Shown: positions 4,183-44,592 of the stretch, in pieces
Position numbering within the stretch: the first letter of the stretch is position 1
How the letters are laid out: every line of letters starts with the position of its first letter
DNA from: a virus
DNA length: 64,000 nucleotides
Reading direction: 5' to 3' (one strand)
IMG/VR virus record: IMGVR_UViG_3300016469_000277
Coordinates: 32,001-96,000 of that record
The notes under the pieces: model-generated
Databases searched by the model: none
Told to the model about the DNA's origin: nothing
What the model saw: the letters and a program-made list of their open reading frames with translations, nothing else
Program-made: the position numbers and the translations under genes

Positions 4183-6741
4183 ATGAGTGACGCAAAAGTA
4201 TCTTTTTACCCTATAGGAGTTCCTCCTAGTCGTACATTAACAATTAATGGTACAACTTATGATTTATCTGTAAACAGAAGTTGGTCTGTAGGTGATGTTT
4301 TTACTTCTGGAAGTTATTCTAATCCGACTTGGATTACTTCATTGGCTTGGTCTAAAATTACTTCTACTCCTACAACATTAGCAGGATATGGAATTACAGA
4401 TGGAGTTTCTACTTCTAGAACTTTAACTATAAATGGAACAGCGTTTGATTTGTCAGCAAACCGTACTTGGTCTGTAGGTACAGTAACAAGTGTCGCAGCT
4501 CTTACACTGGGAACTTCTGGAACAGACTTAAGTTCTACTGTAGCAACAGGTACTACTACTCCTGTAATAACTTTAAACGTACCAACTGCAAGTGCAACTA
4601 ATAGAGGTGCATTAAGTTCTGCTGATTGGAGTACGTTTAATAATAAAATAGGTGGTAGCGGTACAAATGGGCAGATTTCATATTTTACTGCCGCAAGCAC
4701 AATAGCAAGTTCTTCAACACTGACATTTACACCAACAACTGCTTTACGATTAAGCAACTCGGTTACTGCTGGTTTGGGTCTTGCGCAAGGCAGCTTTTTT
4801 TCACCTACCGTGATTGCTGCTGCAAACAACGATGTATTAGTTGGTTTAGACATAACACCTACGTTTACCGTTGGTGTATTTACTGGCGTAACGCCTTTAG
4901 CATTAAGAGCAAGTGGTCGCGTTACTTTTCAAGGCTCTGTTACAAACACAGGTAATTTATCAAACTATACCGTAACCGCCTCAAGTGCTTTGGCTCGTTC
5001 AAAGGCTATTACTTCGACTTTAGTTGCAGCGGCCAATAACGATGTGCTTGCAGCTTTAGATATAGCCCCTACCTTTACGAATGGACTTTTCACTGGCGTT
5101 TCAAACTTTGCATTAAGAACACAAACTGGTAACGTGGTTTTTGGAACTACAAGTGGTTCAGTTGGTATAGGTACTTCAAGTATTAACGCAAGTGCTATTC
5201 TTGACATCACTTCTACGGCAAGAGGTTTTCTTGCCCCAAGAATGACTACGGCACAGAAAAACGCCATTGGTACTCCTGCAACGGGCTTATTGGTTTATGA
5301 TACCACTTTAAACGCCTTTAATTTTTACAACGGTAGCGTTTGGGGTGGTTTAGGTGGAGGACTTACAAACTGGACTGAAGCCTATTCAGCAGCACAACCC
5401 ACAAGTTCTTTCACGGCTACTAATGCTTCTGCAAACGTAAACGCAGCACTTGTTCCAAAAGGCACTGGCGCAGTTGTAGCGTCTATACCTGATGGTGGAG
5501 GTGGAGGTAACTCAAGAGGTATTTACGCAGTAGATTTACAAACAAGAAGAAACAACGCAGCTCAAGTTGCTTCGGGCGATTATTCTGTAATTGGTGGAGG
5601 CTTCTTCAATAGAGCAACAGCTTTTGGCTCTCACACAGGAGGAGGCTATAACAATAACAATGCTTCTACTTATGGACTTATAGGGGGAGGAGAAACCAAT
5701 ACAATAGTTGGAGGACAAGGCGATGTAATTACGGGAGGTTCAAACAATACGATAAACTTTGCTGGTGTTGGTAACGCCAATTGGAGATTTATTGGTGGTG
5801 GATATGGTAATTCTACTAGTGGTGGTCAAAATGATACCGCAGCGATTGTAGGAGGTTTATCTAATTATATTGGTCTTTTCGGAAACTATGCTTTCTTGGG
5901 CGCAGGCAGACAAAATAGCTGTACTGGTACTTATAGTGCTTTAACTGGAGGTTATCTAAACAGAATAGGTAATGGTGATAATAATTTAGCAACTAATTGT
6001 TTCTTGGGTGCTGGGCAATCTAATGTTATAGACACTAACTCTGATTACTCAACTTTGGGAGGGGGTTTATCAAATACTATTTCAGGAGTAGATTATTGCT
6101 TTATTGGAGGTGGTAATACAAACACAATCTCACAAAACTACGGAACTATTGTTGGAGGTCAAAGCCAAACAATATCCGCTACTTATGGTTACATAGGTGG
6201 AGGTCAAAGCAACACTGTTTCTGCAAGTTATGCGTCAATTAACGGAGGACTTCAAGCAACTGCTGGTCTTTATGGACAACAAGCAAGAGCAGCAGGTCAA
6301 TTTGCAGCCAGTGGAGATGCACAAGCGCACGAACTTATTTGGCGTAGATCAATCACAGGAACAGCTCAAACAGAATTATTTCTTGATGGGGCAAGTGTAG
6401 CTGCTATTCTTCCAGGAACTAATGCCATTTGGCAAGGAATAATTGATATAGCAGCTGTTTGTACTGTAACAGGTAACGGAACTACTACTGTAGGAGATGT
6501 TGCTGCTACTTCTTATAAAGTAACAATTAAAAGAATTGGAACTACTACTTCACTTGTAGGCACTGTTCAAGAAATAGGGACTACTAATTCAAACACTTCA
6601 ATGTCTACATCAGTCTTTACAATAGACAATAATGACACAAGTGAGAGTTTAAGAATACAATTTACTCCTCCGACTACCGCAGGATCAACTACTGTAACTC
6701 GTGCAGTAGCTACCTTTAGAGGACTTCAAATACAATACTAA
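4183..6741 (+). CDS. tail fibre / receptor-binding protein
   Basis: T/S/G/A-rich; PTTLAGYGITD motif; duplicated RTLTINGT.DLS.NR.WSVG and AAANNDVL repeats; GG.xN beta-roll repeats. Confidence 0.8.
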   Translation: MSDAKVSFYPIGVPPSRTLTINGTTYDLSVNRSWSVGDVFTSGSYSNPTWITSLAWSKITSTPTTLAGYGITDGVSTSRTLTINGTAFDLSANRTWSVGTVTSVAALTLGTSGTDLSSTVATGTTTPVITLNVPTASATNRGALSSADWSTFNNKIGGSGTNGQISYFTAASTIASSSTLTFTPTTALRLSNSVTAGLGLAQGSFFSPTVIAAANNDVLVGLDITPTFTVGVFTGVTPLALRASGRVTFQGSVTNTGNLSNYTVTASSALARSKAITSTLVAAANNDVLAALDIAPTFTNGLFTGVSNFALRTQTGNVVFGTTSGSVGIGTSSINASAILDITSTARGFLAPRMTTAQKNAIGTPATGLLVYDTTLNAFNFYNGSVWGGLGGGLTNWTEAYSAAQPTSSFTATNASANVNAALVPKGTGAVVASIPDGGGGGNSRGIYAVDLQTRRNNAAQVASGDYSVIGGGFFNRATAFGSHTGGGYNNNNASTYGLIGGGETNTIVGGQGDVITGGSNNTINFAGVGNANWRFIGGGYGNSTSGGQNDTAAIVGGLSNYIGLFGNYAFLGAGRQNSCTGTYSALTGGYLNRIGNGDNNLATNCFLGAGQSNVIDTNSDYSTLGGGLSNTISGVDYCFIGGGNTNTISQNYGTIVGGQSQTISATYGYIGGGQSNTVSASYASINGGLQATAGLYGQQARAAGQFAASGDAQAHELIWRRSITGTAQTELFLDGASVAAILPGTNAIWQGIIDIAAVCTVTGNGTTTVGDVAATSYKVTIKRIGTTTSLVGTVQEIGTTNSNTSMSTSVFTIDNNDTSESLRIQFTPPTTAGSTTVTRAVATFRGLQIQY

Positions 6742-39925: not shown

Positions 39926-40032
39926 TGCGAGTGACAGGATTCGAACCTGTACGTAGGACCTACAATTAGATGATCGGCTATCCTACAGTAGTGATGATAA
40001 TACTTGCGTCTAACCAATTCCGCCACACTCGC
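39926..40032 (-). ncRNA. tRNA-like RNA A (Leu-type D/T arms, non-canonical 55-nt centre)
   Basis: Acceptor GCGAGTG/CACTCGC+A; GGCGGAATTGGTTAGACGC; ACAGG-TTCGAAT-CCTGT; no canonical 7-nt anticodon loop. Confidence 0.8.
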
Positions 40033-40987: not shown

Positions 40988-41119
40988 TAGTCAGGACAGG
41001 ATTCGAACCTGTATGATGTACTGCTTCACTTCCAAAACGGTTGATTCCCTTGTATGGACGCATCGACACATCTCCTATTTAATCTTATAGTAGCGTCTAA
41101 CCAATTCCGCCACCTGACT
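40988..41119 (-). ncRNA. tRNA-like RNA B (Leu-type D/T arms, non-canonical 80-nt centre)
   Basis: Acceptor AGTCAGG/CCTGACT+A; D and T arms identical to RNA A. Confidence 0.8.
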
Positions 41120-43450: not shown

Positions 43451-43597
43451 AAATTTACCCCTCTGCACTCAGTTGTAACTCCAGGTTTATACCCTGAGAT
43501 TCAGACATTACTACGCTGCAGTCTTTCTCTGCAGATGCTCGTATTCTTATTACAACTGTCAGCCCTTGGGAAGCTGAAGTGGTGCGTTAAAAAATTT
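43451..43597 (-). ncRNA. twister ribozyme 1 (type P1, long P5)
   Basis: U^AA-CGCA-CC...TCAGC-TTCCCAAGG-GCTGA-[P5 CAGTTGTAA/TTACAACTG]-TGCA-GA-GGG; predicted cleavage 43589/43588; one C-A mismatch in P2. Confidence 0.85.
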
Positions 43598-43717: not shown

Positions 43718-44592
43718 TTATCCCTCTGCACTCAGTTGTAATAGATAGCCAGTAGTACTACAGTATGGGTTACATACTGTCCATTGCTGATTCCAACGCA
43801 GCATTACCTGAAGTTGGCGGTCACTATCTGTTACAACTGCTCACCCTTGGTGAGTGTGCTGAGGAGTGTAGTACCACTTATATCCATAAGCGGTTTTACT
43901 ACTATCTTTAGCTGCTTTTGACAAGCAGGTAGTTTTATAATTTAATTCTCTTTCTATGTCTTTCATACAAGACCACTCTTTGATAAATAACCCATCAAGA
44001 GTGTATTGGTATAGTTTTTTAGCTTTACCATGTTTAGCTCCAGAAAACATTTGAGAAAGTTTTTTCTTAGTTTCTTCAGTATGCTTAGGTCTATTTCCTC
44101 CTTTATTGAGATTAAGACCTTTGTTTTCATCTTTCCAATAGCATTTATAAAAAGCAATCCAATATTGCTCTCTTTCATCCGCTAAAGTGTCAGAAACCTC
44201 TTCTATTATCTCACACACATGATTCGCAAAACCATATTTTTTCAAAGAGTTATGTAATCTATATTGAGTTCTACAATGTAGAATTTTATATAAATTCATT
44301 CTCTTTTTATAATCCTTTGTTTGCCCAATATATACCTTTCCTGTTGGACTTGTGATTTTGTATATTGTTATCATAATACAAATATACAAAATAATGCACC
44401 ATTTCCCAAGGGCTTAGGAAAATAAATTTCTTTATCACCCTTGGGAAACTGATTAACTAACAATATACAACAGAGGATTTTACAACTGCTGTTATTATTC
44501 TTCATTAATCAGTGTGGTTTCACATCTTGACCCATCAAGCAGGGCAGCGACAAGAAGTCTTTATATCCACGTGAGTTATGGTGCATTAATAA
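43718..44592 (-). ncRNA. twister ribozyme 2, split (5' half 44571-44592, 3' half 43718-43850)
   Basis: TTAT-U^AA-TGCA-CC-ATAA-CTCAC ... CAAGG-GTGAG-P5-TGCA-GAGGG-ATAA, with a ~720-nt insertion in L4. Confidence 0.8.
43841..44374 (-). CDS. GIY-YIG endonuclease with NUMOD-type C-terminus (start revised)
   Basis: TIYKITSPTGKVYIGQT...R...E..WI...GLN; QYTLDG.FIKEW...AYGYKW. Confidence 0.9.
   Translation of the reverse strand: MITIYKITSPTGKVYIGQTKDYKKRMNLYKILHCRTQYRLHNSLKKYGFANHVCEIIEEVSDTLADEREQYWIAFYKCYWKDENKGLNLNKGGNRPKHTEETKKKLSQMFSGAKHGKAKKLYQYTLDGLFIKEWSCMKDIERELNYKTTCLSKAAKDSSKTAYGYKWYYTPQHTHQG

Follow-up and report, generated by a model that had tools for sequence, protein, structure and literature searches.

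A putative intron-less homing endonuclease cassette within the gene for a twister-type RNA in an uncultured crAss-like phage

Homing endonuclease genes live in self-splicing introns, in inteins, or free-standing beside conserved genes. The gene of I-TevI, residing in the td group I intron of phage T4, has its own promoter beside the open reading frame (ORF), and in read-through transcripts its start region is held in a hairpin. Some integrative elements enter tRNA genes and bring a substitute for the 3' part with them. In T4, the tRNA gene cluster contains the gene of SegB, a GIY-YIG homing endonuclease of the free-standing kind (PMC2330249). Its 27-bp recognition site includes an 11-bp motif that matches the conserved T-psi-C stem-loop of tRNA genes, and in co-infections SegB spreads with the neighbouring RNA genes, driving the inheritance of the tRNA region (PMC2330249). 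GIY-YIG insertions unconnected with introns have been described in rRNA genes of Candidate Phyla Radiation (CPR) bacteria, where they were regarded as sparse and as probably lying outside homing spread (PMC11270868). Here we analyse a 64,000-nt stretch of DNA (the window), positions 32,001-96,000 of IMG/VR virus record IMGVR_UViG_3300016469_000277, in which a GIY-YIG ORF is located within a gene for a twister-like RNA (43,718-44,592 in window numbering, which is used throughout; all features of the locus are on the minus strand). The comparisons described below make it likely that a free-standing, intron-less, I-TevI-like GIY-YIG homing cassette invaded a twister-type RNA gene in a phage array of non-coding RNAs. 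No description of a homing endonuclease in or with a twister or another small self-cleaving ribozyme was found in the literature searched.

The virus record (108 kb, 94% complete) encodes a DNA polymerase as well as terminase, portal and capsid proteins. The terminase shares 42% identity with its counterpart in Leptolyngbya phage Lbo-JY46 and 29% with the one in Cellulophaga phi4:1, and Bacteroides crAss phages were among the 132 records that the terminase matched. On the basis of these matches the phage is considered an uncultured crAss-like relative. BLAST searches with the locus and with a consensus-like twister gave no match in 50,697 annotated phages; a metagenome scan for relatives added a single close one (L299), and a scan of GTDB genomes none. 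Labels such as L001, L002 or L216 denote loci on IMG/VR or metagenome contigs that were compared with the window.

Related nuclease cassettes in twister-like RNA genes

On the minus strand the window holds two copies of a twister-like RNA: an uninterrupted copy (twister-1) and the copy that contains the nuclease gene (twister-2). The layout of the family is U^AA-UGCA-CC-linker-P4-UUCCCAAGG-P4'-P5-AG-UGCA-GAGGG. In a subtype termed class-2, a two-hairpin domain is placed between the 5' strand of P4 and L4; at least 20 relatives of 198-326 nt have this domain with neither an interruption nor an ORF.

The ORF scored 29.1 bits with the Pfam GIY-YIG family PF01541 (cut-off 22.6), which was also matched by 29 of the 32 clade members. 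It could be aligned with the catalytic domain of I-TevI (1LN0/1MK0, E 6e-5), the IY..VYIG, KKR and ERE segments being in register at the Tyr, Arg and Glu positions. Matches of the window protein to NUMOD1 (18.8 bits) and NUMOD3 (17.5 bits) were under the cut-offs; within the clade NUMOD3 was matched by 18 and NUMOD1 by 6 of the 32 proteins. No CNNNG motif of the I-TevI type was found by eye 23-25 nt upstream of the insertion site. The start of a second GIY-YIG-like ORF (VYKLSFTGCDKVYIG) was noticed on the plus strand at ~48967 (genome 80967). As a rule, introns are where nucleases of this GIY-YIG type are encoded, and several distant homologues are named 'group I intron endonuclease' in their sources, so an ORF in a self-splicing group I or group II intron, with only an incidental resemblance to a twister, had to be considered. 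However, no intron family matched the segment 43000-45200 even at E values up to 10, in agreement with the absence of group I elements recorded in the initial annotation of the locus, and the non-coding sequence around the ORF is fully accounted for by covarying twister parts. The probability of an intron is negligible.

Outside the window, nuclease genes were found in twisters of seven contigs: L002, L001 (two genes, L001-A and L001-B), L299, L382, L216, L379 and L464. GIY-YIG homologues with ribozyme flanks, which the initial annotation had proposed to look for, thus exist as related cassettes at L4 of other twisters. The L382 protein is 56% identical to that of the window; those of L216, L379 and L464 are only 26% identical and form a second lineage. 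In every occupied twister the left junction lies at L4, except in L001-A, where it lies inside stem a of the expansion. On the right the flank restarts at (C)CAAGG, or at CUAAGG in L464; the exception is L002, where this relic (see below) has been deleted. This recurrence of related cassettes at one and the same loop suggests that the conserved ribozyme cores serve as landing pads.

Comparison of individual loci suggested mobility. L299 and L001 share a 670-bp unit, 99.4% identical, which extends from L4 to the base of P5 and is embedded in unrelated flanks; the host twister upstream of the unit is class-1 in one locus and class-2 in the other. Similarly, 603 bp of the window (44457-43856, including L4/P4') are 88.7% identical to L002, again between unrelated flanks. 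In L216 the P4 stem is chimeric, with CCUGU as left and GUGAG as right strand, which is what co-conversion from a donor would produce. L133 has an intact twister and no nuclease gene at a place syntenic with L216, the downstream 594 nt being 92.6% identical between the two. The same comparison showed that the RNA arrays are hypervariable.

Homologues of the window protein form 31 clusters (55-97% identity), for which only the C-terminal peptides were compared. Ten of them end in ..EQL or ..KQL before the stop, about eight in ..H, and three, like the window protein, in ..HxHQG. The ..EQL/..KQL ends are what GAG-CAG-UUG-UAA, the P4'/P5 sequence, would encode. Among more distant GIY-YIG homologues (at most 53% identity, ~240 fetched loci) no twister was found beside the gene.

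It was also considered that there is no targeting, i.e. that chance brought a free-standing nuclease gene in between tandem twisters and that later deletions between repeated twister sequences mimic an insertion. Removing from the L299 form what separates its two CCCAAGG-G/U..GAU repeats indeed gives the window form, in L299, L001-B and L464 the nuclease gene is positioned between an upstream twister or twister fragment and a downstream near-complete twister, and the RNA arrays are prone to recombination as well as hypervariable. Chance landing would however have to account for one L4 junction that is shared across twister subtypes by lineages of only 26% identity and by members of down to 56% identity, for a near-identical unit ending exactly at the conserved core, for the chimeric P4 of L216, and for the lack of twisters beside the distant homologues. 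We regard it as quite unlikely. Thus, of the proposal that a non-intron homing element targets ribozyme cores, the non-intron nature of the cassette, its location in a twister-type gene and the movement of its family between conserved cores are retained on comparative evidence; the insertion site and most of the ribozyme pieces had been misassigned, as described in the following section.

Anatomy of the RNA family and boundaries of the cassette

The 18-nt 3' motif of the family was present in at least >120 IMG/VR contigs, and 120 distinct uninterrupted copies were parsed. Covariation was scored on 63 aligned uninterrupted copies, using 500 shuffles and slid controls for comparison. All five pairs of P4 had changed on both sides (99.4% of the cells paired), as had all five of P1 and six of the nine of P5. 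P2 was invariant, twister-1 being the sole exception. None of the 500 shuffles reached the observed covariation values, and slid controls were 31-45% paired vs 91.9% in the actual alignment. The loop contacts T1 (CCC of L4 with GGG of GAGGG) and T2 (CC after P2 with GG of L4) were complementary in 63/63 copies, with one G-U; because both are invariant, they have no support from covariation. U-A-A before P2 and G-A-GGG after P2' were likewise found in all 63 copies.

The twister consensus has a scissile U-A in the internal loop between P1 and P2, and a conserved G just 3' of P2'. From comparison with the rice twister, we take the family architecture to be that of a type-P1 twister with P5. Since the Rfam models give no match, the RNA is filed as twister-like by architecture and covariation and not as a curated member. 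Judged from the alignment, this is a very large phage RNA family with twister architecture, and its RNAs probably undergo site-specific self-cleavage.

The order of elements in the class-2 domain is GUGGAUAUAAAGACUUCUUAG...CUAAGAUGUGAAACCAC, A, CUGAUUAA...UUAAUCAG, followed by UCUCCCAAGG-GUGAG-P5. The outer stem (stem a) is paired in 20/20 copies with three compensatory types, and stem b has 7/7 pairs in 19/20; both stems covary and appear in the predicted fold of the window copy. A second, paralogous GIY-YIG gene of L001 (HEG-A, 2193-2790) interrupts stem a of such a domain; the UAA at the cleavage site of the next twister is the stop codon of HEG-A.

These data changed the map of twister-2 (Table 1). 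The two outer strands stood as first read, UUAU-U^AA-UGCA-CC-AUAA-CUCAC at 44592-44571 and CAAGG-GUGAG-P5-AG-UGCA-GAGGG-AUAA at 43849-43718. A ~720-nt insert between two ACTCAC copies was not supported, since 44570-44449 is a native covarying domain and the left ACTCAC is the 5' strand of P4. Comparison with class-2 relatives identified 44448-44435, previously taken for a displaced ribozyme piece, as the true L4/P4' of twister-2. For the 11-mer described as a P5 entry (44490-44480), about 0.3 occurrences are expected by chance in 1.5 kb (an estimate), and the surrounding stem is variable among relatives; the match was therefore dropped as a meaningful piece. Because twister-2 belongs to a natural L4-expanded subtype, the pieces listed in 44570-44435 are its native domain plus L4/P4', and the cassette starts after GUGA (44435) and not at ACTCAC.

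At the right boundary the TGA stop codon (43843-43841) falls inside GUGAG, confirming that the ORF ends within a P4' sequence. The ORF of L464, of the other GIY-YIG lineage, ends in CCUAAUGCAC-UAACUCAU-CUAAGG-GUGAG, a nearly complete second 5' strand with a spoiled L4; the counterpart in L299 and L001 is CCUUUGCAU-UAACUCAU-CCAAGG-GUGAG. By homology the window segment CCUCAGCAC-ACUCAC-CAAGG-GUGAG is a further-decayed version of the same segment. A built-in anti-ribozyme strand had been postulated here; CCUCAGCAC pairs with GUGCAGAGG at 8/9 positions only and is homologous to the decayed twister 5' strand still recognisable in L464. Because of this homology to a duplicated 5' strand, the pairing is explained as a relic of P2/P1 pairing and not as a designed one.

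Table 1. Features of the twister-2 locus and its neighbour
Feature	Position	Strand	Basis or remark
Twister-2 5' strand	44571..44592	-	Layout as in 90 parsed relatives
P1 5'; P2 5' (UGCA); T2 (CC); P4 5' (CUCAC)	44592-44589; 44585-44582; 44581-44580; 44575-44571	-	Sequence
Predicted scissile bond of twister-2	U44588/A44587	-	Sequence
Native class-2 expansion between P4 5' and L4	44449..44570	-	At least 20 uninterrupted relatives, covarying stems
Expansion stem a, GUGG...CCAC	44570-44514	-	Covariation
Expansion stem b, CUGAUUAAU...UUAAUCAG	44512-44449	-	Covariation
True L4 (UUUCCCAAGG, 44448-44439) and P4' (GUGA, 44438-44435)	44435..44448	-	Holds the place of UCUCCCAAGG-GUGAG in uninterrupted class-2 copies
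10-bp direct repeat CCAAGGGTGA, left copy	44435..44444	-	Sequence
Hairpin of L4 (44448-44438) with anti-L4 arm CCCUUGGGAAA (44412-44402)	44402..44448	-	11/11 bp, in minimum-energy fold
UGGUGCAUUA, antisense to cleavage-site strand	44392..44401	-	With shared A44402 pairs 44588-44578, 11/11 bp
Hairpin with start codon in loop	44355..44392	-	17-nt arms, 88% complementary; in folds of window, L002 and L299/L001-B type
TAnnTTTG promoter-like box TATATTTG, 4 nt upstream of ATG	44379..44386	-	Genome-wide box count
Endonuclease cassette proper, 584 nt, between direct repeats	43851..44434	-	603-nt stretch including L4/P4' matches L002
GIY-YIG ORF, 177 aa, intact, I-TevI-like	43841..44374	-	Pfam and structure match
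Decayed second copy of twister 5' strand and P4 hairpin, encoding last ORF codons and stop (relic)	43840..43864	-	Homology to L464, L299, L001
Relic elements: CCUCAGCAC; ACUCAC; CAAGG; GUGAG	43864-43856; 43855-43850; 43849-43845; 43844-43840	-	
10-bp direct repeat CCAAGGGTGA, right copy	43841..43850	-	Sequence
Twister-2 3' part	43718..43839	-	Family alignment, pair analysis
P5 arms; P2' (UGCA); GAGGG (T1 partner); P1 3' (AUAA)	43839-43824 and 43748-43733; 43730-43727; 43726-43722; 43721-43718	-	
Twister-1, uninterrupted neighbour, P4 UCAGC/GCUGA	43452..43597	-	Row of 63-copy alignment

In twister-1 the first pair of P2, adjoining the cleavage site, has C (43586) where U is otherwise found; twister-1 is the sole row of the 63 without U-A at columns 12/176. 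Its P4 type was found in only 4 of 90 copies. The substitution and the rare P4 could represent a change to nuclease resistance or simply decay.

Several further arrangements were observed. Copies at L260 (11060-11205), L258 and L280 carry a tetraloop instead of L4 (ACC-UUCG-GGU; CUGAC-AUAA-GUCAG) and changed 3' motifs; as they are unable to form the loop pairings, a scaffold with conserved P5 base (CAGUUGUAA/UUACAACUG) may act beyond self-cleavage. In L222 (1938-2230) and L288 (7749-8040) an element 90% identical to the region upstream of L002 is joined straight to P5 plus the 3' twister half, without a 5' half. A hammerhead (RAGATH-1-hammerhead model, 35.5 bits; CUGAUGAG...GAAAC) lies directly 3' of the nuclease-hosting twister of L001 (3608-3693). 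The contig of L169, which also has twisters of the family, gave a GOLLD RNA match at 4367-4761, which with 100.8 bits (E 2e-25) fell short of the gathering score, 150. Within the window itself, tRNA models matched 39926-40032 and 40988-41119 on the minus strand with 40 and 34 bits, with 46- and 68-nt insertions in the anticodon/variable region and no ARAGORN call.

Antisense block, expression signals and predicted folds

The 21-nt block 44412-44392 was verified to be perfectly complementary, over 11 bp each, both to L4 and to the strand with the cleavage site. When the 60-nt leader was shuffled 5000 times with conserved dinucleotides, two runs of at least 10 nt occurred in no shuffle and one run of at least 11 nt in 10. 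The double antisense match is non-random. In the predicted fold the anti-cleavage helix closes the four-way junction of the 5' half (z -6.4).

The TAnnTTTG box, which we take to be a Bacteroidota-type -7 element, is found 4-5 nt before the ATG of eight ORFs in the phage genome vs ~0.2 expected, suggesting that the phage makes many leaderless transcripts. It precedes the nuclease ATG in the window, L002, L001-A, L216, L464 and L382, i.e. in both nuclease lineages. From this we infer transcription of the nuclease gene from a promoter of its own into a nearly leaderless mRNA. As just 4 nt separate the box from the ATG, the structured 'leader' probably lies outside the gene's own mRNA and belongs to read-through RNA. 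An AUG-hiding hairpin in read-through RNA combined with an own promoter is the arrangement of T-even nuclease genes. The L4 hairpin was also tried as a canonical intrinsic terminator and was not flagged by a simple scan.

In the initial annotation the antisense strands at both ends of the cassette were interpreted as purpose-built devices that lock or switch the invaded ribozyme; such strands might protect the cassette's own mRNA or regulate cleavage. A contiguous 11+11-bp antisense block far beyond chance, which moreover dominates the predicted fold, is what such a device would require, and the anti-L4 arm is present in L002, L299 and L001-B as well as in the window, the L4 hairpin recurring in all three. 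The L002 fold shows the same L4 hairpin. But the arm is absent from L216, L379, L464, L382 and L001-A, and the hairpin of L299 and L001-B, a longer one of ~15 predicted bp, is formed with a separate L4-like 5' arm, behind a compact twister that is complete. The anti-cleavage arm occurred in no other of ~460 fetched loci; the nearest available relative, L002, has UGUGGUUUUA in its place, with 4/10 positions changed. The 10 nt after the anti-L4 arm of L002 do pair with another conserved twister segment, AAACCACA, yet this is an 8-bp match, and ~15% of shuffles reach 8. Furthermore, the block lies upstream of the promoter-like box, and TTGGGA in the anti-L4 arm is spaced 17 nt from TATATT and resembles a -35 element, which offers a different reason for the conservation of the arm. 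As the arms are not conserved, the pairing at the 3' end is an inherited relic and the leader is probably outside the gene's own mRNA, conservation gives no backing to a lock or switch by design, and we judge such a device unlikely. Nothing pointed to an RNA-associated nuclease, the other function that had been suggested. The predicted helices may silence the orphaned 5' half in a lineage-specific manner.

A further possibility is that the split twister still works, the ORF being looped out at the P4'/P5 junction and cleavage at U44588/A44587 processing read-through RNA; CCCUUGG (44412-44406) might close the loop by pairing with CCAAGGG of the relic (43850-43844). The scissile UA, P2, T2, P4, L4, P5, P2', GAGGG and P1 are each present once and in the right order, and the ends of the 895-nt RNA pair in its predicted fold. 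The unit of L299 and L001-B brings a spare P4'-miniP5-P2'-GAGGG that completes the 5' half of the recipient into a compact twister. A working split twister appears very improbable: P4' abuts P5 with 0-1 nt between them in 63 uninterrupted copies, so that a 590-nt insert at this point has no natural precedent; L4 and the cleavage strand are already engaged in local helices ~650 nt before transcription reaches the 3' half; and L002 lacks the relic needed for the closing stem. In the 895-nt fold the relic strand closes the 3' half as a separate module. With its halves ~650 nt apart and each folding into a closed module, the invaded ribozyme is, on these predictions, most likely dead in the window genome.

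A self-healing form of the cassette (L299, L001-B) next to an antisense-silenced form (window, L002) might indicate that cassette and ribozyme are co-adapted at the RNA level, an idea that we put forward tentatively and with more doubt than confidence.

Proposed mechanism and comparison with known systems

In the homing model favoured here, the nuclease would recognise the near-invariant L4-P4'-P5 core TTCCCAAGGGTGAGCAGTTGTAA in cassette-free twister genes and cut there. In a co-infection, a phage with the cassette would then provide the template for repair of the break, with conserved ribozyme sequence on both sides as portable homology arms. Occupied alleles should be immune, because the left copy of the core is without the P4'-P5 continuation and the right copy without UUC(C) of L4. 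The nuclease would be transcribed from its own TAnnTTTG promoter into a nearly leaderless mRNA, and in read-through transcripts the AUG would be hidden by the hairpin. In the invaded RNA, the 5' module would be closed by the L4 hairpin and the lineage-specific 11-bp helix onto the cleavage strand, and the 3' module by the relic 5' strand.

The following points weigh against this model. For the locus of the window itself no isogenic empty allele was found; the 71-aa ORF upstream of it has no relatives in IMG/VR, so that no syntenic empty allele could be located. The 10-bp direct repeat is not a product of homing via double-strand-break repair as such, and a further event has to be assumed for it. 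In L299, L001-B and L464 the nuclease gene may equally be seen as lying between two tandem twisters and not inside one, and for most of the 31 homologous clusters the association with twisters is predicted from C-terminal peptides. Rfam, including its twister models RF03160 and RF02684, called neither copy of the window a twister at the gathering threshold or at E values up to 10, and did not do so for a 96-nt compact copy of the family either. Finally, nuclease activity and RNA self-cleavage are predictions from sequence.

With alleles of the occupied, the empty and the 'self-healed' kind at hand, ribozyme activity and homing are both open to direct tests, and the near-invariant 23-bp core is a candidate target for a new sequence-tolerant nuclease. 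The locus also led to a twister-like family of crAss-like phages that is very large, is missed by Rfam and includes the L4-expanded subtype and the tetraloop copies; this family bears on the long-open question of the role of twister and hammerhead clusters in phages. Should the co-adaptation hold true, small self-cleaving ribozymes would be a second kind of catalytic-RNA host besides self-splicing introns, with tolerance rules of their own.

The window nuclease shares with I-TevI the nuclease family, including the aligned catalytic Tyr, Arg and Glu, and the residence of its gene within a ribozyme gene. It differs in that the insertion is at a core junction and not in a peripheral loop; and since a twister, unlike the td intron, cannot splice itself out, RNA processing does not restore the host RNA. 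The unit of L299 and L001-B resembles integrative elements of tRNA genes in bringing its own 3' part to complete the 5' half of the recipient, whereas break repair is presumed here instead of site-specific integration, and the window copy has no spare half. With the insertions in CPR rRNA genes the window cassette has in common a GIY-YIG ORF inside a structured-RNA gene without a group I or group II intron; in contrast to these, the same junction is used in many loci, a near-identical unit occurs in unrelated flanks, and the host is a phage ribozyme of ~100-300 nt.

The mobility evidence supports intron-less homing into ribozyme DNA, for which SegB is the nearest precedent. In both cases a free-standing GIY-YIG gene lies in a phage cluster of non-coding RNAs, and the target is, or in the window is predicted to be, the invariant core of a structured-RNA gene. 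Here the predicted target belongs to a small twister-type ribozyme and not to a tRNA, the cassette splits the RNA gene, the ORF overlaps the ribozyme, and homing is inferred from sequence. The locus would thereby extend to ribozymes the principle represented by SegB, that of an invariant structured-RNA core as the target of a homing endonuclease.

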